In this document: piece by piece, positions 19,311 to 32,200 of the stretch | How the letters are laid out: the number at the start of each line of letters is the position of its first letter | Numbering within the stretch: the first letter of the stretch is position 1 | Source: Ignavibacteriota bacterium | GTDB lineage: Bacteria; Bacteroidota; Ignavibacteria; UBA10030; CAVZMI01 | DNA: 64,000 nucleotides | Reading direction: 5' to 3' | Assembly: GCA_963776275.1 (NCBI GenBank) | Contig: CAVZMI010000005.1 | Span: 32,001 to 96,000 of the forward strand | Notes under the pieces: model-generated | Databases searched by the model: none | The model's input: the letters and a program-made list of their open reading frames with translations, nothing else | What the model was told of the DNA's origin: nothing | Made by a program: the position numbers and the translations under genes

Positions 19311-22091
19311 ATGGCACATAAGTATGTTTACTTTTTTGGAGGGAAGAAGGCGGAAGGAAAGGCGGTTATGAAGAATCTCCTCGGAGGAAAAGGTGCAAAC
19401 CTTGCCGAGATGGTGAATATCGGTCTCCCCGTCCCGCCGGGATTTACAATGACGACCGAAGTATGCATATACTACTACTCGAATAAGAGATCATATCCGA
19501 AATCTTTGCAGAAGGAAGTTGTTGCGGCTTTGAAGAAAGTCGAAAAGGAAATGGGTGCGAAATTTGGCGACCCGAAAAACCCGCTTCTCGTCTCCGTTCG
19601 TTCGGGCGCACGCGCTTCAATGCCCGGCATGATGGATACTATTCTAAATCTCGGTTTGAACGATCGAACGGTCGAAGGATTGATTGAGAAAACCGGAAAT
19701 CCGCGTTTTGCCTACGATTCATATCGCCGTTTCGTTTCGATGTACGGTGATGTTGTTCTGGGTTTGAAACCGCAGCATAAAGATGAAATCGATCCGTTCG
19801 AAGAAATTCTTGAAGCAAAGAAAAATGCCCGCGGTATCAAACTCGATACCGAGCTTACGGCTGATGATCTTAAAGAGCTCGTTGCAGAGTATAAAAAGGC
19901 CATCAAGGAACGTACCGGACATGATTTCCCTGAAAATCCGATGAAACAGTTGTGGGGAGCTGTCGGTGCGGTTTTCGGGTCGTGGATGAACGAACGTGCC
20001 GTCGCATATCGGAAAATGTACGATATCCCGGCGTCTTGGGGTACGGCCGTCAACGTGCAGTCGATGGTATTCGGTAACATGGGTGACGACTCCGGTACCG
20101 GCGTGGCATTCACACGCGATGCTTCAACTGGCGAGAATGTTTTCTATGGCGAATTTTTGATGAACGCACAGGGTGAAGACGTTGTGGCCGGGATACGAAC
20201 GCCCCTGCCGATTGCGAAACTGGCTGTTGAAAATCCAAAGATCTATGCTCAACTTGAAAAAATCCGTCAGGCTCTTGAAAAACATTATAAGGACATGATG
20301 GATATAGAATTTACAATTCAACAGGGAAAATTGTACATGCTTCAATGCCGTGTCGGCAAGCGAACGGCATTTGCAGCAATCAAGATTGCGGTCGACATGG
20401 TTGGCGATAAGCTCATCGACGATAAAGAGGCTCTTCGTCGAATCGAACCAGATCAATTGAACCAGCTCCTCCGTCCTGTCTTCGATCAGAAGCAGAAAGA
20501 AGAGGCAATAAACTCCGGTCGTCTGATCGCAGTAGGATTGAACGCCGGTCCGGGTGCCGCATACGGCCGCGTTGTGTTCAACGCGCCCGACGCCGAAGAA
20601 TGGAAATCGCGCGGCGAGAAAGTAATCCTCGTCCGTATCGAAACTTCACCTGAAGATATCAAAGGAATGAATGCAGCCGAAGGTGTTCTCACAGCACGCG
20701 GCGGTATGACGTTGCATGCTGCACTCGTTGCACGTCAAATGGGGAAAGTATGCGTTGCAGGTTGTTCGGTTCTCGAGATCGATTATTCGAAACATATCAT
20801 GAAAATAGCCGGCCGTAAAGAAGCCGTGAAAGAAGGCGATTATATTTCTTTGGACGGTTCGAAGGGCGAAGTAATCCTCGGTCAGGTACAAACGAGGAAC
20901 TCGGAGGTAATCCAGGTTCTCATTGAAAAATCGTTAATACCCGCTCAGGCTCCTATCTATCAGCAGTATGCAAAAATCATGTCATGGGCCGACAAATATC
21001 GTAAGCTCAAAATTCGTACGAATGCCGATCAGCCCGATCAATCGGCCAATGCCGTTGCGTTCGGTGCCGAGGGTATCGGTCTCTGCCGCACGGAGCATAT
21101 GTTCTTCGGTGAGGGTAAAATTGAACCGATGCGCGAGATGATTCTCGCGGATACGCCCGAGCAGCGCAAAACCGCACTTGCCAAATTATTGCCGCTGCAG
21201 CGTGTGGATTTCGAGGGAATTTTCGAGGTAATGGACGGGCGTCCTGTTACAATACGCACTATCGATCCGCCGTTGCATGAATTTGTTCCGCACGAAGAGA
21301 AAGCGCAGCGTGAACTCGCAATGCAGATGAATGTACCGTATGAGAAAGTACACCAGCGTGTCGAGGAATTGCACGAATTTAATCCCATGCTTGGTTTCCG
21401 CGGATGCCGTCTTGGTATCATTTATCCTGAGATCACGGAAATGCAGGCGCGTGCAATCTTCGAAGCCACGGCAAATGTCATTGCACACGGTAAGAAGGTG
21501 GAACCCGAGGTGATGATTCCGCTTGTCGGCAATGTGAAGGAATTAATTAATCAGGAACAGATTGTTCGGCGCGTTGCAGCAGAAGTGATGGCTGAAAAGA
21601 AAATCAAGTTCAAATACCTTGTCGGAACAATGATCGAAATTCCGCGTGGTGCACTGACTGCCGATGAAATTGCGGGTGTTGCGGAATTTTTCAGTTTCGG
21701 TACAAACGATTTGACGCAGACTACTCTCGGTGTGAGCCGTGATGATGCGGCACGATTTCTTATTCCATACGTGGGAATGGAAATCTATCCGAAGGATCCG
21801 TTCGATTCACTCGATATCGTCGGTGTCGGTCAGTTAATGGAGATCGCATTGAAGAAAGGACGTTCTGTTCGTCCGGATCTTAAGGTCGGTATATGCGGCG
21901 AACATGGAGGTGATCCGGCGAGTATTGAATTCTGTCATAAAATAAAACAGAATTATGTGAGCTGCTCACCGTTCCGTGTGCCGATTGCGCGCCTGGCAGC
22001 CGCTCGCGCTGCTTTGAAAGATATCGCGCCGATGAAAAAAGTGAAGAAGGCGGCGCTGCACAGACAAGCGAAAAAAGCGCGGAGAAAATAA
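19311..22091 (+). CDS. ppdK: Pyruvate, phosphate dikinase
   Basis: [49 protein letters not shown] and GICGEHGG motifs. Confidence 0.98.
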
Positions 22092-24707: not shown

Positions 24708-25712
24708 ATGAATGTTGCGGTAATTGGAGCAGGAAGTTGGGGGACTGCCCTTTCGATTCTCCTCTGGAAAAACGGCCATACCGTGCGATTATGGACTTAC
24801 TCCACGGAATATGCAGATGAGATTACAAATCATCACGAAAATTTATCATTCCTTCCGGGAATAAAAATTCCAGAAGAGATTTTGGTGACAACGGATTTTA
24901 TCGAGGCGGCAGCCAATAAAGATATGGTCGTCTTTGCCGTTCCATCGCAGTTCCTTCGTTCGATTGCCGGTCAAGCCGCAGGTGTTAATTTTTCACAAAC
25001 GCTGATTGTCCATGTTGCTAAGGGGATCGAACATCACTCTTTAAAAACCATGTCCGAGGTTCTTATCGAAGTGATACCGACAGCCGCACCGGATCGGGTT
25101 GCAACGCTGTCAGGTCCCAGCCATGCTGAAGAAGTGAGCCGGGATATTCCCACTGCTGTCGTTGCGGCAGCCACCAATGGTCAGGTTGCGAAATCGATTC
25201 AACAATTTTTTATGAACCGGACATTTCGCGTTTATACCAATACAGATCTTCGGGGTGTGGAACTAGGCGGAGCACTGAAAAATGTCATTGCCATTGCCGC
25301 CGGTATTTCAGATGGAGCGGGTTATGGTGACAACACAAAAGCTGCTCTCATGACGCGCGGAATTGCAGAGATAACGCGGTTGGGCGTCGCAATGGGAGCA
25401 AATCCTCATACGTTTTCGGGATTGAGCGGTGTAGGCGATCTATTTGTAACATGCATGAGCAGACACAGCCGAAACCGCTTTGTAGGTGAGCAAATTGGCA
25501 AAGGACGGCGGCTGGATGACGTATTGAAAGAAATGGTAATGATTGCAGAAGGTGTCGAAACTGCTCGTTCAACCACAGAATTATCGCAGAAGTATAAAGT
25601 GGGAATGCCTATTTTTTTTGAAGTTCATAAGATGTTATTTGAAGGAAAAAATCCCCACATTGCAGTCGAAGAACTGATGACCCGGGATGCGAGGGAAGAA
25701 CTCGAACATTAG
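24708..25712 (+). CDS. gpsA: NAD(P)H-dependent glycerol-3-phosphate dehydrogenase
   Basis: GAGSWGTAL, SGPSHAEEV, GGALKNVIAIA and GDL..TC.S.HSRN motifs. Confidence 0.96.
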   Translation: MNVAVIGAGSWGTALSILLWKNGHTVRLWTYSTEYADEITNHHENLSFLPGIKIPEEILVTTDFIEAAANKDMVVFAVPSQFLRSIAGQAAGVNFSQTLIVHVAKGIEHHSLKTMSEVLIEVIPTAAPDRVATLSGPSHAEEVSRDIPTAVVAAATNGQVAKSIQQFFMNRTFRVYTNTDLRGVELGGALKNVIAIAAGISDGAGYGDNTKAALMTRGIAEITRLGVAMGANPHTFSGLSGVGDLFVTCMSRHSRNRFVGEQIGKGRRLDDVLKEMVMIAEGVETARSTTELSQKYKVGMPIFFEVHKMLFEGKNPHIAVEELMTRDAREELEH

Positions 25713-25756
25713 TATTCACAGTACAATATTCATAAACAAGGGATAGGAGGATACGT

Positions 25757-26785
25757 ATGAATAATTCATTCAAATGCTTTCGATGGTTTGTTGTACCGAT
25801 GCTGATAATTGCTCTTATGGTTGGCGGCTGTAAGAAATCATCATCGACGGGGCCAGATACAGATATTCCTACATACCCGGTGACCGCAAAGGTTCTCGAT
25901 CCGCAGGGATACCCTCTGGGCGGAGCGACACTGACGCTCTTAAATCCACCATTTGAAGATCCAAAATTCACATCGCTGACGGACTCCACGGGAAAAGCCA
26001 CGATTCAATCTCCAGCCGGGCAGCAAACATTGCTTGCAAAATTCGGTACTGTATTTGAGGGAACGCTGAATGTGACTGTTGCAGCCTCTTCGACTCCGAC
26101 AATCGTGACGACACCAATTCAAGTGCATCAGAATACTAGTTTAGGAAAAGTACTTGTCGTTCTGGCAAGCGCCGAACAACTCGAAGATGTGTTGCATGCT
26201 ATCGGTTATACGACATTTGATTCAATAAGCGTCGAAGCGTTGCGCGATTCGGCGGACACAGATTCGACCAAGTTGTTGCAATATCTGAAACAATACAAGC
26301 TTATCTTCTCTGATTGCAACGGCGGCGATGAGTATCAATATCCGCTTCTTGCTCGTACCTATGGTCGCTATGTTACCGACGGAGGAAAAATCTATGGTGG
26401 ACATTATAACTACTACATCTTGCAATATATCTGGCCGCCATACTTCAAACAAAGAGATTACCAGGGTGATGTCTCGACAGATACATTGAAAATCGTCGAT
26501 AATAACCTGCAGAAAGCCGTTGGCACGTACCTCGATTGGACAAAATCGGAGGATTCACGCCATCTTTCAGATTATCAAAAGTTTTCGGATCTACCACCAG
26601 CTCCGATTTCGCATACCTATGGAGTAATCAAAGGGACTAGTCCTGAGGTCGGTGTCATCGTGGAATGCTATCCGAATCCCAACCCTAACGGCGGTAAGTA
26701 TCTCTGGACGGATTACCATAACCAGGACATCCTGAACAATACCAAACTCCTGAAAATCGTAACATACTTCTTGAACGGAATGTAA
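25757..26785 (+). CDS. Lipoprotein of unknown function with N-terminal carboxypeptidase-regulatory-like beta domain
   Basis: AGGAGG RBS; hydrophobic signal with lipobox-like VGG-C then KKSSSTGP; 'V.DPQG.PL.GAT.TL' beta-sandwich pattern. Confidence 0.65.
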   Translation: MNNSFKCFRWFVVPMLIIALMVGGCKKSSSTGPDTDIPTYPVTAKVLDPQGYPLGGATLTLLNPPFEDPKFTSLTDSTGKATIQSPAGQQTLLAKFGTVFEGTLNVTVAASSTPTIVTTPIQVHQNTSLGKVLVVLASAEQLEDVLHAIGYTTFDSISVEALRDSADTDSTKLLQYLKQYKLIFSDCNGGDEYQYPLLARTYGRYVTDGGKIYGGHYNYYILQYIWPPYFKQRDYQGDVSTDTLKIVDNNLQKAVGTYLDWTKSEDSRHLSDYQKFSDLPPAPISHTYGVIKGTSPEVGVIVECYPNPNPNGGKYLWTDYHNQDILNNTKLLKIVTYFLNGM

Positions 26786-26807
26786 AATATTTTATAAATC
26801 CGCTTCT

Positions 26808-26842
26808 AAAAGCCGGCATGTATAATATGTGCCGGCTTTTTT
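26808..26842 (+). terminator. Rho-independent terminator
   Basis: AAAA-GCCGGCA-loop-TGCCGGC-TTTTTT. Confidence 0.85.
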
Positions 26843-26845
26843 ATA

Positions 26846-26874
26846 TTGCCTAGCGTTTCATTTTTTTGTATATT
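26846..26874 (+). promoter_or_regulatory. Putative sigma70 promoter of the tRNA locus
   Basis: TTGCCT-17 bp-TATATT, ending ~20 bp before the outer tRNA-like shell. Confidence 0.6.
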
Positions 26875-26893
26875 AATAAACCTATTATCGATT

Positions 26894-27095
26894 GCTGAAG
26901 TAGCTCAGCGGTAGAGCAGTCCCGACAATTTTCTTATATGCTGGCGTAGCTCAGCGGTAGAGCAGCGGTTTCGTAAACCGCAGGTCGTCGGTTCAAATCC
27001 GACCGCCAGCTCAATGTATGAAGAGAAAATTTTCGGGATAAACCGCAGGTCGTGCCTTCCCGCTAAAGGCGGGAAGGCAAATCCCACCTTCAGCT
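26894..27095 (+). pseudogene. Degenerate tRNA-like shell enclosing the intact tRNA-Thr
   Basis: Acceptor GCTGAAG (26894-26900) pairs with CTTCAGC-T (27088-27095). D-arm TAGCTCAGCGGTAGAGCA is intact. TAAACCGCAGGTCGTG...CAAATCCCAC retains the 3' anticodon strand, variable loop and T-arm remnants. Confidence 0.8.
26940..27011 (+). tRNA. tRNA-Thr (anticodon CGT), CCA not encoded
   Basis: Full cloverleaf: GCTGGCG/CGCCAGC acceptor, GCTC/GAGC D-stem, GCGGT-TTCGTAA-ACCGC anticodon arm, GTCGG-TTCAAAT-CCGAC T-arm, discriminator T. Confidence 0.97.
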
Positions 27096-27643
27096 CAGCG
27101 GTAGAGCAGTCCCGTCCCGACGCAGTCGGGACGGGATAAACCGCAGGTCGTCGGTCCTCCGCCGCGCTTAATGACCGGGTGAGGCGGATCCGCCGTAGGC
27201 GGAAAATCCGACCCTTCGACTCGTCCTCCTTTGTCGGACTCGCTCAGGGTAACACCGCCAGCTCAATGTATGAAGAGAAAATTTTCGGGATAAACCGCAG
27301 GTCGTGCCTTCCCGCTAAAGGCGGGAAGGCAAATCCCACCTTCAGCTCAGTGGTAGAGCAGTCCCGTCCCGACGTAGTCGGGACGGGATAAACCGCAGGT
27401 CGTCGGTTCTCCGCCGCGCTTAATGACCGGGTGAGGCGGATCCGCCGTAGGCGGAAAATCCGACCCTTCGACTCGTCCTCCTTTGTCGGACTCGCTCAGG
27501 GTAACACCGCCAGCTCAATGTATGAAGAGAAAATTTTCGGGATAAACCGCAGGTCGTGTCCGCCACTGGCGGACAAATCCCACCCTTCGACTCGTTCATC
27601 CCGCTATCGCGGGATTCACTCGCTCAGGGTGAAGCCGCCAGCT
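27002..27643 (+). repeat. 252-bp tandem repeat (two full copies plus a divergent partial third) built from tRNA-Thr fragments and palindromes
   Basis: ACCGCCAGCTCAATGTATGAAGAGAAAATTTTCGGGATAAACCGCAGGTCGTG starts at 27002, 27254 and 27506. The two full copies differ at 3 positions by my reading. Confidence 0.95.
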
Positions 27644-27837
27644 AAATAAGAGAGAAGATTGACGATTCACTCACCGTCTTATTCAGTGTCATCCCAATGA
27701 GTACCTGCCTATTCATAATATCTTCTATTATAATTCCAGTATAGATAGAGTAGAAAAATCCAGGCCAGCTTGAATCGCCAGTTAAAGCTTTACGAAAAAT
27801 CTCCAAATGAAAGCCCTTTTCCTGCCTCGAAGAGACC

Positions 27838-27866
27838 TTGAAGTATAAGCGTTTCTTATCTATATT
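27838..27866 (+). promoter_or_regulatory. Putative sigma70 promoter for gdhA
   Basis: TTGAAG-17 bp-TATATT. Confidence 0.55.
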
Positions 27867-27901
27867 TAGATTTACTAACGTCGTTTATGGGAGATTTTCT
27901 T

Positions 27902-29242
27902 ATGTCTGAATATGTCGAGAAGCTGATGAATGAGGTCAGAGCGAAAAACCCGGGAGAACAGGAATTTCATCAGGCAGTCCAGGAGGTCGCCGAGTCGCTT
28001 GATCTTGTTCTGGAACGCCATCCGGAATATCGTGCCGCAAAAATATTGGAGAGGATGGTCGAACCGGAACGCGTTGTCATTTTCCGCGTCCCATGGCTTG
28101 ATGACCAGGGTGAGGTCCACATCAATCGCGGCTTTAGAATTCAGATGAACAGCGCCATCGGACCGTACAAAGGAGGCCTGCGCTTCCACCCCTCTGTAAA
28201 CCTGAGTATCCTGAAGTTCCTTGCATTCGAACAGGTTTTTAAGAACAGTCTTACATCTCTTCCGATGGGTGGAGGGAAGGGGGGCTCCGATTTTGATCCG
28301 AAAGGAAAAAGCGAAAATGAAGTGATGCGGTTCTGTCAGAGTTTCATGACTGAGCTGTTCCGTCATATCGGTCCGGATATAGATGTTCCTGCAGGAGATA
28401 TCGGCGTCGGCGGACGTGAAATCGGATATCTTTTTGGACAATATAAACGGTTGACGCGTGAATTTTCAGGTGTGCTGACGGGGAAAGGATTAAACTGGGG
28501 TGGATCGCTTGTGCGACCGGAAGCGACCGGCTATGGAGCGGTCTATTTTGCAGAGGAGATGTTAAAAACCCGCGGCCATACAATAGAAGGACGGATCGTG
28601 GCAGTGTCGGGATTCGGTAATGTCGCCTGGGGTGCGGTTCAAAAAATTAACCAGCTTGGCGGCAAGGTCGTTACACTCTCCGGTCCGGATGGATTCATCT
28701 ATGATAAAGACGGGGTGAAGGGAGAAAAGATCGATTACATGCTCGAAATGCGTGCAAGTGCGAAGGATCAGGTTCAGGATTATGTAAAGAAGTTTAAAGT
28801 TGATTTTTTCCCCGGCAAGAATCCGTGGGGAATTAAAGTTGATGTCGCCATGCCGTGTGCGATACAGAATGAACTCGATGAGAACGATGCGCAAGAGCTG
28901 GTGAAGAATGGATGCATCTGCGTTTGCGAAGGTGCCAACATGCCGACCACACTGCGGGGAGTAAAGATATTCCAGCAGGCCGGCATCCTTTTTTCACCCG
29001 GAAAAGCATCGAATGCAGGCGGTGTGGCAACCTCTGGACTCGAAATGTCACAGAATAGCATGCGGCTGCCCTGGCCAAGAGAGGAAGTCGACAAACGTCT
29101 CCAAGAAATCATGAGAAATATTCATCAGACGTGCGTTGAAACTGCGGAACGATTCGGCACACCGGGGAATTATGTCAACGGTGCCAACATAGGCGGTTTT
29201 CTCAAAGTCGCAAACGCGATGATGGACCAGGGACTTGTGTAA
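27902..29242 (+). CDS. gdhA: NADP-specific glutamate dehydrogenase
   Basis: EFHQAV, GPYKGGLRFHPSV, MGGGKGGSDFDP, DVPAGDIGVG and RPEATGYG motifs. Confidence 0.96.
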   Translation: MSEYVEKLMNEVRAKNPGEQEFHQAVQEVAESLDLVLERHPEYRAAKILERMVEPERVVIFRVPWLDDQGEVHINRGFRIQMNSAIGPYKGGLRFHPSVNLSILKFLAFEQVFKNSLTSLPMGGGKGGSDFDPKGKSENEVMRFCQSFMTELFRHIGPDIDVPAGDIGVGGREIGYLFGQYKRLTREFSGVLTGKGLNWGGSLVRPEATGYGAVYFAEEMLKTRGHTIEGRIVAVSGFGNVAWGAVQKINQLGGKVVTLSGPDGFIYDKDGVKGEKIDYMLEMRASAKDQVQDYVKKFKVDFFPGKNPWGIKVDVAMPCAIQNELDENDAQELVKNGCICVCEGANMPTTLRGVKIFQQAGILFSPGKASNAGGVATSGLEMSQNSMRLPWPREEVDKRLQEIMRNIHQTCVETAERFGTPGNYVNGANIGGFLKVANAMMDQGLV

Positions 29243-29247
29243 CAATC

Positions 29248-32200
29248 ATGGCTGATCAGCTGACTAAATCTCATCCACTATTCGGCGGTAAGAATCTGGA
29301 TGTTACCGATAGCGCGAGCTATCAGGGATTCCAGAGTCTTATGCGCTACCGGATCAGGGATATCCTCCTGGTATCCAGTCTATACGACTCGTATATTTTT
29401 GAAGAAGACGGAAGACTCTATGAGCTCATTCGAAAAGAATATCAGGGGCTCGATCTGAGTCATACTCCGGAATTTACCCATGTCGGCACCGGACGCGAAG
29501 CGATAGAATTGGCAAGTCAGGAAAACCGCTTCGACCTGATCATTGCAACACTGCACATCGAAGATGTCCATCCTGTCCGGTTTGCAAAAATGGTCCGTGA
29601 ATCGGGGCTGAACATTCCAATCGTCCTGCTTGCGTACGATAATCGGGAAGAGGCCGAACTCATTGCCTCGCACGATATCTCGGTCTTCGAGCGTATTTTT
29701 ATCTGGCAGGGTGATTATCGAATCCTTATCGGGATTATTAAATATGTTGAAGACCGTTTGAACGTCGATGAAGATACCCGCCTCATCGGTGTTCAATCGA
29801 TTATCATCATCGAGGATAATGTAAAATTTTACTCTTCATATCTTCCGATCATTTATACTGAGATCGTGAAGCAGTCGCAGCGGTTGATTTCGGAGGGTGT
29901 AAATCTCTCGCATAAATATCTCCGCATGCGGGCGAGGCCTAAGATTCTTCTCTGTACGACCTACGAGGAAGCATGGTCATATTTCGAAAAATACGAGGAG
30001 AATATACTTGGTGTCATATCGGATATCGACTTTATGCGCAACGGTGTTCACGATCCGACCGCCGGGATAGAATTTGCGAAGAATGTGAAGGCGCGGCTCT
30101 CCGATATACCGATTTTGCTCCAGTCAAACGACCCGTCGAAGGAATCGATTGCGAAAACGATGGGTGCATCGTTCATTCTGAAAGATTCGCCGACGCTTCT
30201 TAATGAGCTCCGCAGGTTTATGATACAGAATTTCGGTTTTGGCGACTTCATTTTCCGAATGCCGGATGGAAAAGAAGTCGGCCGGGCGACGGATCTGCGA
30301 TCGCTCGAAGCGCAGTTGCGGATTGTCCCCGATGAATGCATCTACTACCACGCTGAACGGAATCATTTTTCCAACTGGCTGAAGGCACGGACGGAATTCT
30401 GGCTCGCGCACAGGCTGCGGCCGCAAAAAGCCTCGGAGTTTCCCTCGATTGCGGTCATGCGTGAGGACCTTGTATCATGGCTGCGCCGTTATCGCCATAT
30501 ACGTCAGCGCGGTCAGATCACCGATTTCACGAAAGAAACGTTCGACCCATACACGAGCTTCGCCCGCTTAGGCAGCGGATCGCTGGGCGGAAAGGCACGC
30601 GGGCTGGGCTTTTTCAACCGGCTTCTCCACAGCTTTGATATTCGCAACCGGTTCCCCGGCATTAAAATTATGATTCCGCCGGCGGTTGTCCTTGCTACGG
30701 ATATTTTCGATCAGTTCATCGAGGAAAATAATCTGCGGGAGTTTGCCCTCAGCGCCACGAACGATGAAGAAATCACAAGGCGATTTGTGGAAGCGCCCTG
30801 GTTTCCGCCCGATGTTCTCCATGCGCTCTCGGCGTTCCTCGATCTTATCCGCGTCCCGCTTGCAGTCCGTTCATCGAGCCTGCTCGAAGATTCGCAGTAC
30901 CATCCGTTTGCCGGCGTCTATGCGACATACATGATTCCGAATAATATGGAGAATTCTCATGGCCCGGTTGAACGATCTTGTTTCTACTATCAAGCGGGTC
31001 TATGCGTCGATTTTCTATCGGAGCGCAAAAGATTATATGAAGGTCACTTCATACCGCCTTGAAGAAGAAAAAATGGCGGTCATCGTTCAAAAGATGGTCG
31101 GGAATGCGCATGAGAACCGCTTTTACCCCGATTTTGCGGGTGTTGCACGGTCATATAATTTTTATCCGATCGCGCCGCAAACACCGACCGACGGCATCGT
31201 CTCCGTCGCATTGGGATTGGGAAAGACCATTGTTGAGGGAGGAATAACCGTCCGGTTCTGTCCGAAGTATCCCACTCACCTATTTCAGCTCTTTTCGGCG
31301 GAAGAGGCGCTTCACTATAACCAGAGCCAGTTCTATGCACTTGAGTTGAACGGTAAACCCCTCGATGTCAGTGAAACTCACGATATGCTTTTAAAACAAT
31401 ATAATCTCTCCGTTTCCGAACAGGATGGAACGCTGACGTATGTCGGCTCGACATACTCATCCGAGAACGACGCCGTCTACGATGGATTATCGCGTCCGGG
31501 CCGGCGGATTGTCACGTTCGCACCGATCCTGCGGCAGCGCATCTTTCCGCTGCCGAATATTATTGAACTTCTTCTGAATCTCGGGAGCTGGGGAATGGGT
31601 GCGCCGGTAGAGCTGGAATTTGCGGTCAACATGACGTCGGTTCCGCGTCTGGGGAGAGAATTCGGACTTCTGCAGGTACGGCCCCTTGTTATAAATCGCG
31701 AGCTCGAAGAACTCAACGTTGAAGACGTTGAGCAGGAAAAAATTATCTGCCAGAGCAGTCATGTGTTGGGCAACGGGGTCATCAACGATCTATATGATAT
31801 TATAGTCGTGGATTACCATAAATTCGACCGGGGCCGCAGCCGTGAGGTTGCCGTCGAGGTAAGTCGATTTAATGAAAAGCTCATCTGGGAGAACCGGCCT
31901 TATTTAATCATCGGCGTCGGACGGTGGGGAACGCTCGACCCATGGCTTGGTATTCCGATCAAGTACGATAATGTTTCGGGCGCCAAAGCGATAGTTGAAT
32001 CGGGATTCAAGGACATGGATGTAACGCCGTCGCAGGGTTCGCACTTTTTCCAGAACATCACGTCATTCATGGTCGGATATTTTACGGTTCATCCGCGGGT
32101 GGGGCAGGGGTTCATCGACTGGGATTGGCTGTTGAGTCAGCCGATCTGTGAAGAGAAAGAGTTCACCCGGCATCTGCGGTTCGATAAGCCGATCGTAGTC

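Follow-up and report, generated by a model that had tools for sequence, protein, structure and literature searches.

A tRNA-Thr(CGT) gene nested in its predecessor, and the hairpin-bearing array of dead copies that follows it, point to tRNA gene turnover in Ignavibacteria

Introduction

Why should a working tRNA gene sit between the two halves of another one, and be followed by a tandem array of broken copies in which hairpins occupy fixed positions of the cloverleaf? The question is raised by a tRNA-Thr(CGT) locus of an Ignavibacteriota bacterium, located in a stretch of 64,000 nucleotides (assembly GCA_963776275.1, contig CAVZMI010000005.1, positions 32,001 to 96,000, forward strand) that is called the window here. 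A first-pass annotation, made from the letters of the window, had offered two explanations, namely a co-transcribed array of anticodon-less tRNA mimics or decoys, or a hotspot repeatedly hit by a hairpin-writing mechanism. What the locus resembles is a site where selfish DNA turns over at tRNA genes, as opposed to a collection of tRNA mimics made for a purpose. It represents a gene-less case of tRNA gene turnover, a process that extends through the genome and the lineage and whose elements are nesting, microhomology duplication, hairpin repeats and, at other loci, tiny GIY-YIG genes.

The source genome, G000, is a metagenome-assembled genome of 3.70 Mb in 38 contigs, with 45% G+C, 46 tRNAs and an estimated contamination of 5.3%. 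It was compared with a congeneric genome, G001, and with the genomes of relatives, which carry the other G numbers. L002, L005, L007, L022 and so on denote tRNA-Thr loci of relatives, and L056-L058 and L060 denote loci of G000. Coordinates of the features are collected in Table 1.

Results

A working tRNA gene inside a split older gene

ARAGORN detected a single tRNA in the whole window, the tRNA-Thr(CGT) at the centre of the locus. Against the Rfam model RF00005 the same gene (26940-27011) scored 74 bits, with a gathering threshold of 29 bits, and thus qualifies as a tRNA. It is the sole CGT isoacceptor among the 46 tRNAs of the genome. On either side lies one half of a second tRNA-Thr(CGT) gene, the outer shell, separated from the inner gene by inverted arms. 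The 3' half of the shell begins at the last anticodon base of the outer tRNA, and its acceptor strand pairs with 26894-26900 in the predicted fold. The acceptor and T stems of the inner and the outer gene are unlike. Ahead of the shell lies a promoter-like site, which is itself preceded by a terminator-like hairpin of the upstream gene (26808-26840). The motif TTTTTGTATATT was likewise found upstream of tRNA-Thr(CGT) in L002 (G001), L005 and L007.

In the congeneric genome (L002), an intact tRNA-Thr(CGT) of the GCTGAAG type stands in the same place behind the same promoter-like motif. The shell pieces of G000 (26 + 14 + 17 nt) are identical to this intact 73-nt tRNA, save for two replaced 8-mers. 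Thus the shell of G000 is a former working gene.

The 252-bp array and its inserts

Tandem Repeats Finder reported a repeat with a period of 252, 2.2 copies and 99% matches, which bears out the 252-bp tandem array that had been placed at 27002..27643. In a repeat search the two full units were 99% identical and the third copy consisted of the first 53 nt only. Direct reading gave the layout that had been described, with the 3' half of the outer shell fused via AGCTC(A) to a copy of the inner tRNA. Three sites (27099, 27123 and 27156, each C/T) distinguish the two full copies. Copy 3 diverges at 27559 and carries, again as first observed, another hairpin of 19 nt (27557-27575) at the site where copies 1 and 2 have a 27-nt T-arm hairpin. 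The length of the unit can be fully accounted for. The segment 26953-27096 (144 nt) plus inserts of 19, 46 and 43 nt gives 252, from which it follows that the unit is a tandem duplicate of this segment, formed via AGCTC microhomology, that later gained the three inserts.

Two kinds of change were observed in the copies. In the first, tRNA sequence is replaced. In the anticodon arm of the dead copies, the 8 nt CGGTTTCG are swapped for a 27-nt hairpin of 12 bp (27110-27136 and 27362-27388), just as the first-pass annotation had stated, and in the T-arm of the shell 3' halves TGGGTTCA is swapped for a 27-nt hairpin (27053-27079 and 27305-27331). The lost stretch of about 8 nt comprises the 5' stem strand and the first half of the loop, and this holds for the Thr copies as well as for Gly and Ser copies elsewhere in the genome. 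In the second, sequence is inserted. The T-loop of the dead copies contains a 46-nt double hairpin (27158-27203 and 27410-27455), which in copy 1 lies between GGTCC and AAATCC. A 43-nt insert at about 27212-27254, with a core resembling repetitive extragenic palindromes (REPs) at 27212-27250, parts the T-stem from the acceptor strand. These are the T-loop hairpins and the further element that had been noticed initially. The repeat units lack the 5' acceptor strand and have the 5' strands of the anticodon and T stems replaced, so that the D-arm alone survives. Copies without the 5' acceptor strand are dead.

The T-loop element can be described in its own right. It measures about 46-63 nt and consists of a stem TC[C/A/T]GCC..GGC[G/T/A]GA, an inner part ..TTATRAnnCGGTGA and a second hairpin TCCGCC..GGCGGA. 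Its first stem shows compensatory changes across copies (TCCGCC/GGCGGA, TCAGCC/GGCTGA, TCTGCC/GGCAGA). No Rfam match to the element was obtained. It is additionally present in three copies of an unrelated repeat.

The locus in the congeneric genome and in wider relatives

Downstream of its intact gene, G001 has the same AGCTC junction and a dead copy with the anticodon hairpin, 99% identical over 80 nt. The T-loop of this dead copy is plain and the 43-nt element is missing; both inserts are present in G000. Since the 46-nt and the 43-nt insert are cleanly absent from the orthologous pseudo-copy, we infer that they are recent DNA insertions. The two genomes also differ at other tRNA arrays described below. 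G001 has two tRNA-Gly(GCC) units and one fMet/nuclease unit, against five and four in G000, and four pseudo-fMet hairpins against two. These differences in copy number may be affected by assembly; the differences in hairpins cannot be. A shorter, G001-like form of the Thr locus, including the key junction and the anticodon hairpin, was recovered on a 6,061-nt contig of an unrelated public run. A search for sequencing runs gave two public DNA runs (shares 0.08 and 0.05), which yielded contigs of relatives only, about 90-95% alike, and neither a run of the source sample nor an RNA run with the stretch.

Complete nests, composed of old 5' half, arm, intact tRNA, arm and old 3' half, were found around tRNA-Thr in at least 10 genomes of several families. 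In most nests the outer and inner acceptor stems are unlike, and in one of them a Thr(TGT) gene lies within a CGT-type shell. Nests of other genomes have the arms TCCCGAYAAYTT.. and ..AARTTRTCGGGA in common. The arm sequence, which in G000 is confined to this one locus, recurs at the same gene across families. Fifteen genomes, out of 277 in the order and belonging to 5 of 9 families, contain the junction CGGGATAAACCGCAGG, a 16-mer. As a control, the reversed sequence was searched and gave 0 of 277. A scan of all species genomes with the junction gave 31 loci. About half were Ignavibacteria-type nests and the remaining ones were chance matches in coding regions of unrelated bacteria.

The same pattern at other tRNA genes

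Same-strand partial copies at a distance of up to 1.5 kb accompany 18 of the 46 tRNA genes of G000, against none of 138 random windows of equal size, and many carry the same hairpin families. The pattern is therefore found at other tRNA loci too. When the array was searched against the genome with short words, the matches adjoined other tRNA genes. The dead copies in which these hairpin families were seen at equivalent sites derive from tRNAs for Thr, Gly, Ser, Pro, Val and Met, and TCCCG..CGGGA hairpins take the place of the same 8 anticodon-arm nt in Thr, Gly(GCC) and Ser(GCT) copies. Directly upstream of tRNA-Gly(GCC) (L058:226-655; G000:C18:93425-93854) there are five 86-bp units in two alternating variants. 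Each represents the 5' two-thirds of the tRNA, with hairpins substituting 8 nt of the anticodon arm and of the T-arm; in the anticodon arm CAACCTTG is swapped for TCCCGATGAAATCGGGA. Downstream of tRNA-Gly(TCC) lie three 148-bp units, in whose T-arm CGGGTTCG has given way to a hairpin. A pseudo-Ser(GCT) has hairpins in the anticodon arm and in the T-loop, and 5' pieces of Val, Ser and Pro tRNAs have D-loop hairpins. Relatives of the 46-nt element occupy the identical T-loop position in dead Thr, Pro, Ser and Met tRNA copies. The part of the first-pass annotation that suspected a hotspot for hairpin writing is thus supported, both by these equivalent sites and by the two inserts absent from G001.

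The hairpin families are dispersed genome-wide, including outside tRNA contexts. Perfect TCC..GGA hairpins number 132 in the genome, with about 19 expected from mononucleotide shuffles of three contigs. TCCGCC..GGCGGA palindromes are present in 95 copies, many of them with GTAG. TCCCGAC hairpins are nested within one another and in the centre of a family with the outline CCCTTCGACTCG-[hairpin]-CTCGCTCAGGG. A regular expression for the latter gave 108 matches, roughly half of which were evident members by eye. REPs have been grouped into GTAG- and CGTC-tagged superfamilies, the CGTC-tagged ones being reported in Chlorobi and Bacteroidetes, and they are on record within the centres of other palindromes (PMC3733652).

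As a separate observation, the CCCTTCGACTCG-[variable hairpin]-CTCGCTCAGGG repeat is found at G000:C21:6960-7216 and at about 50 dispersed sites. Its outer 4 bp covary (CCCT/AGGG, TGGT/ACCA, TCCT/AGGA), and it is present in tandem as well, as a 32-bp array with eight units.

Candidate enzymes

Nine Y1_Tnp matches were obtained in G000. At least four are intact genes resembling REP-associated tyrosine transposases (RAYTs) of about 150 residues, each with its own flanking palindromes. TCCGCC..GGCGGA repeats adjoin three of the nine Y1-transposase genes (C23:193133, C28:53606 and C12:68627). A permuted hairpin, GTCGGGAT..ATCCCGAC, adjoins one weak Y1-like gene (C23:132289-133203). Its paralog L056 (G000:C38:31598-31846) and this gene, both RAYT-like, share a peculiarity, a short perfect palindrome inside the reading frame. 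The palindromes are GGTCGAAAT gaa ATTTCGACC and TGTAGGTCGGAAT gtc ATTCCGACCTACA, read as ..VGRN(E/D)I...

GIY-YIG matches numbered 15 in total, 13 of them small reading frames. The small frames (PF01541) encode single-domain proteins of 72-127 residues, and their genes are flanked by hairpin repeats. In size they agree with the Ssn type, a single GIY-YIG domain of about 90-100 residues. The nearest solved chains are UPF0213 proteins, with a weak E of 0.003, and NCBIfam gave weak sub-threshold matches only. Eight of the 13 small frames lie beside a tRNA or in its pseudo-tRNA array (Pro-GGG, Pro-TGG, Ser-GGA, Ser-CGA and four times fMet). At Ser-GGA, Pro-GGG and Pro-TGG the nuclease gene has the intact tRNA on one side and, on the other, displaced 5' or 3' pieces of it with D-loop or T-loop hairpins. 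In the case of tRNA-Pro(GGG) the order is old 5' piece, GIY-YIG gene, intact tRNA and old 3' piece, that is, the Thr-type nest plus a gene. In the fMet locus (L057:287-1780; G000:C10:40586-42080), a 349-bp array of four units comes after an initiator-type tRNA-Met that is intact. In each unit an 87-codon GIY-YIG gene runs into a tRNA-fMet copy with the D-loop replaced by TCCGCCGAAGGCGGA. Only the first tRNA copy of the locus has a normal D-loop, and the last one carries a T-arm hairpin in addition.

Three further small GIY-YIG genes were noted at G000:C8:55238-56116, C22:3342-4217 and C26:29005-29880. They are flanked by a repeat of about 55 nt which, by eye, resembles a miniature class-II tRNA (GGTTGCCGAGCGG....GAGTCGAGGCAACC).

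Discussion

A proposed turnover of tRNA genes and what weighs against it

We think it probable that a tRNA cassette bounded by hairpin arms replaced the resident gene, that tandem duplication through AGCTC microhomology followed, and that REP-like hairpins then colonised the dead copies via enzymes acting on single-stranded DNA. In a first step, which the comparison with G001 shows, the resident AAG-type gene was split in its anticodon arm by a cassette in which a different, complete tRNA-Thr(CGT) gene lies between the inverted arms TCCCGAC.. and ..GTCGGGA. Because this cassette borrows the resident promoter and replaces the function of the gene, the insertion is harmless. In a second step, which the sequence of the unit shows, the 144-nt segment from the inner D-loop to the end of the shell was duplicated in tandem via the 5-nt AGCTC. 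In a third step, small GC-rich palindromes of families dispersed in the genome colonised the dead copies; the places they replaced or entered are the anticodon arm, the T-arm with its loop, and the T/acceptor junction. For two of the inserts, presence in G000 and absence from G001 is observed; the route proposed for the palindromes is that of REP-like repeats moved by enzymes that act on folded single-stranded DNA, an enzyme class suggested by the pattern and by precedent. The loops of the cloverleaf would be the exposed places once a tRNA gene is single-stranded, and insertions would be tolerated only in copies freed from having to work. Afterwards the whole 252-bp unit was duplicated again. 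The RNA of the array would probably be made together with the tRNA and degraded once RNase P and 3' processing free the inner tRNA. Accepting these steps, the array itself is likely to have arisen as a side effect of the DNA turnover that affects the tRNA-Thr(CGT) gene, and to be no device in its own right.

The REP/REPIN-RAYT systems are a close precedent for the third step. Like REPs, the hairpins of G000 are short, GC-rich palindromes that are dispersed in high copy number, from tens to hundreds, and some of them adjoin Y1-transposase genes. In contrast to REPs, they lie in dead tRNA copies at the loops of the cloverleaf, and at two positions 8 nt are replaced, which is no plain insertion. 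The TCCCGAC family could be tied to no RAYT of G000, and the mobility of the G000 hairpins is putative.

Several observations weigh against this account. A RAYT gene flanked by the TCCCGAC..GTCGGGA hairpin was sought in G000 and none was found. There is no enzyme gene in or beside the Thr(CGT) array and no GIY-YIG match nearby on the window contig. Likewise, tblastn with nine G000 queries (E up to 1e-3) gave no GIY-YIG match in 50 tRNA-Thr loci of relatives (L001-L050). Known Y1 transposases insert cleanly, and the exact replacement of 8 nt, 5' stem strand plus half of the loop, is unlike that. A short-word search for the arm sequence elsewhere in G000 gave 14-15-nt matches at chance level only; without another copy the cassette is locus-specific in its behaviour and no free transposon. 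Selection on RNA structure would also fit two of the observations, namely that the arms are complementary and that the T-loop element has compensatory changes. Finally, part of the difference in copy number between G000 and G001 could reflect assembly collapse.

The 8-nt replacement, the single-locus arms and the compensatory changes go beyond REP- or IS200-type transposition as we know it, and for this reason a bolder interpretation is kept open. Taken as a whole it is tentative, clearly less likely than the account above. According to it, Ignavibacteria may harbour an undescribed, enzyme-less replacement cassette, consisting of a tRNA-Thr gene within conserved inverted arms of about 14 nt, together with a fold-reading insertion of hairpins. 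The cassette would repeatedly be knocked into the anticodon arm of the resident tRNA-Thr(CGT), take over its promoter and become indispensable, which would make it an addictive selfish tRNA gene. The hairpin process would read the cloverleaf of single-stranded tRNA genes and rewrite the arms of disabled copies, and the array would be a fossil stack of such rounds.

A possible nuclease-driven origin

The small nucleases at other tRNA genes suggest another origin, which we consider rather unlikely. The array might be a gene-less derivative of the tRNA-nested GIY-YIG cassettes of this genome, in which a small nuclease like SegB or Ssn makes cuts at or close to tRNA genes and causes the amplification of segments; the hairpins would then be recognition repeats of the nuclease that also protect spent copies. 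The position of eight of the 13 small frames and the four fMet units of tRNA copy plus nuclease gene, with D-loop hairpins in the extra copies, are in favour of it, as is the recurrence in relatives of tandem GIY-YIG genes spaced by 300-390 bp. Precedents exist on both sides. SegB of phages T4 and T6 is a free-standing GIY-YIG homing endonuclease in a tRNA cluster that drives tandem amplification of tRNA segments (PMC13096335), and the single-domain Ssn nucleases, whose genes have hairpin repeats on their flanks, cleave single-stranded DNA at these repeats (Chenal et al. 2025, PMC11893778).

At the Thr locus itself, the evidence points the other way. A nuclease gene in or beside the amplified tRNA segment was found at other tRNA loci of G000, and neither at the Thr(CGT) locus nor in the 50 loci of relatives. 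Throughout the order, 41 genomes have 1-18 GIY-YIG matches each, often in tandem. The counts do not track the Thr junction, with 3-15 in the six genomes that have it (G000, G001, G012, G017, G018 and G034) and 1-18 in the other 35, and no evident relation. The published SRM pattern is not enriched: the array contains no match to it, and the six matches of the genome compare with 15 of the reversed genome. The comparison with the known nucleases is mixed in the same way. With the Ssn nucleases (NTS/SRM), G000 shares about a dozen single-domain GIY-YIG proteins of 72-127 residues with hairpin-flanked genes; the SRM pattern and the lack of such a gene at the Thr locus separate the two, and the main text of PMC11893778 nowhere uses the word 'tRNA'. 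As with SegB, there are GIY-YIG genes next to tRNAs in G000 and tRNA-containing segments amplified in tandem. SegB, however, is a phage protein, and in G000 the setting is chromosomal. The G000 proteins comprise nothing beyond the catalytic domain, hairpins disable the amplified tRNA copies, and a nuclease gene is missing from the Thr array.

A possible functional RNA

The array might instead encode functional structured RNAs, anticodon-less tRNA-like scaffolds that display hairpins and either distract tRNA-binding factors, as decoys or sponges, or have a stabilising effect as 3' structures. We regard this as improbable. Transcription of the array together with the tRNA is plausible, given the promoter-like site upstream and a search of the + strand after the array that found no terminator-like site. 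The predicted folds are also strong. The nest folds in silico into a cloverleaf within a long stem within a second acceptor stem (-92.6 kcal/mol, z -7.0), and a single unit reaches a z of -4.3. One can add on this side that the first stem of the T-loop element shows compensatory changes, and that among different tRNAs the hairpins keep to equivalent cloverleaf positions.

The fold predicted for the single unit, however, is a row of independent hairpins without a cloverleaf. Of the acceptor, anticodon and T stems the units have no 5' strand, so that a tRNA-like shape is impossible save for the D-arm. In 25500-29000, Rfam returned no further tRNA-like match besides the inner gene, even with E up to 1; two other weak matches far below threshold were dismissed. 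The absence of an Rfam match and the hairpin-row fold mean that the term 'tRNA mimic' does not fit the units. Moreover, the array and its inserts vary between two genomes of one genus, and the hairpins belong to families that are dispersed outside tRNA contexts. The mimic or decoy half of the first-pass explanation is thus not upheld. A further comparison of G-U with A-C mismatches, intended to tell RNA from DNA pairing, counted two G-T and two A-C mismatches in the tRNA-oriented hairpins near tRNAs; with 14 hairpins, these are too few cases to be informative.

Weaker explanations

Fragments of tRNA genes beside tRNA genes are common in prokaryotes, where they are left by integrating elements as attL and attR attachment (att) sites (PMC9897764). 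The partial copies could accordingly be attR-type scars from serial integration and decay of integrase-borne islands, and like such scars they are same-strand partial copies next to an intact gene. Several relatives have nothing else than [tRNA]-spacer-[3' half from the anticodon loop], repeated (L024, L026), which agrees with this origin. At the G000 locus it is nevertheless very unlikely. The junctions are inverted (TCCCGA.. / ..TCGGGA) and form no direct repeat of a core, the 5' half lies upstream of the intact gene so that the latter is nested within both halves of the old one, the spacers measure 20-110 nt, and no integrase or island is nearby, the neighbours being plsY, gpsA and gdhA.

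An assembly artefact in the repeat number or in the whole array, conceivable for a metagenome-assembled genome in 38 contigs with an estimated contamination of 5.3% and units that are 99% identical, is the least credible of all, since the three inter-copy differences and the distinct third unit speak against simple mis-joining, the key junction and the anticodon hairpin are present in the independent assembly G001 and in the contig of the unrelated run, and equivalent arrays exist at other tRNAs. Two other candidates were discarded: a group I or other tRNA intron, as no ribozyme was matched and the 'exons' would be 8 nt short, and a CRISPR-like or TIGR-like array, as spacer logic and associated genes are absent.

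Relation to known parts and significance

The separate parts of this turnover are already known, that is, tRNA fragments beside tRNA genes, REP-like repeats and nucleases of the Ssn and SegB type. In the literature library that was searched, no description was found of bacterial tRNA genes that are nested, nor of bacterial pseudo-tRNA arrays with hairpins substituted into them; PMC3184786 contained nothing of relevance to tRNA. If the turnover reading is true, intragenomic conflict is played out on a very small scale at the tRNA genes of this lineage, beyond their role as landing pads for large islands. Essential genes would be replaced by nested copies of themselves, and the spent copies would be tagged with hairpins at positions set by the fold. 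Such loci would then offer a natural system for the choice of targets by enzymes of single-stranded DNA, such as RAYT transposases and Ssn-type nucleases, and they bear on the question of how a single-copy gene that is essential can be invaded and still keep its function. In practice, pseudo-copies at about 40% of the tRNA loci of G000 may mislead tRNA annotation, assemblers and island finders.

Other features of the locus

Table 1. Features of the tRNA-Thr(CGT) locus (window coordinates) and related sites elsewhere
Feature	Position	Strand	Remarks
Promoter-like site	26846-26874	+	TTGCCT, 17 nt, TATATT; TG ahead of second hexamer by eye
Outer shell, 5' half	26894-26919	+	First 26 nt of AAG-type tRNA-Thr(CGT): acceptor GCTGAAG, D-arm
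Left inverted arm	26920-26934	+	TCCCGACAATTTTCT; 93% complementary to 27024-27038
Inner tRNA-Thr(CGT)	26940-27012	+	Functional, GGCG-type, acceptor GCTGGCG; ARAGORN, Rfam, tRNA census
Tandem array	27002-27558	+	Units 27002-27253 and 27254-27505, partial third
Right inverted arm	27024-27038	+	AGAAAATTTTCGGGA; again at 27276-27290 and 27528-27542
Outer shell, 3' half	27039-27096	+	TAAACCGCAGGTCG, hairpin 27053-27079 replacing TGGGTTCA, then AATCCCACCTTCAGCTC
Dead copy 1 of inner tRNA, D-loop onward	27097-27263	+	Fused to shell via AGCTC microhomology; three inserts
Dead copy 2 of inner tRNA	27349-27515	+	Same three inserts: 27362-27388, 27410-27455, 27464-27502
Terminal hybrid 3' half	27543-27643	+	TAAACCGCAGGTCG, hairpin TGTCCGCCACTGGCGGACA (27557-27575), AATCCCAC, REP-like element, acceptor strand
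Second REP-like element	27583-27630	+	In terminal hybrid 3' half
Acceptor strand of terminal hybrid	27635-27643	+	CCGCCAGCT
T-loop element, further G000 sites	C21:75315-75360; C37:20739-20801, 21313-21375; C15:149710-149772; C6:30531; C15:79185; C31:16074		
Wedged GIY-YIG loci	L060 (G000:C37:20000-21600); G000:C21:75200-75900; C20:153600-154200		
Nest-bearing genomes/loci	G000, G010, G012, G017, G031, G034, L022, L032, L039, L046		

Three reading frames of 60-72 codons lie within the array, and none of them gave a Pfam match. The glutamate dehydrogenase gene occupies 27887-29242 of the window. It is directly followed (29248-31062) by a gene for a protein of 604 residues, which has a PPDK_N ATP-grasp domain and matches a receiver weakly.

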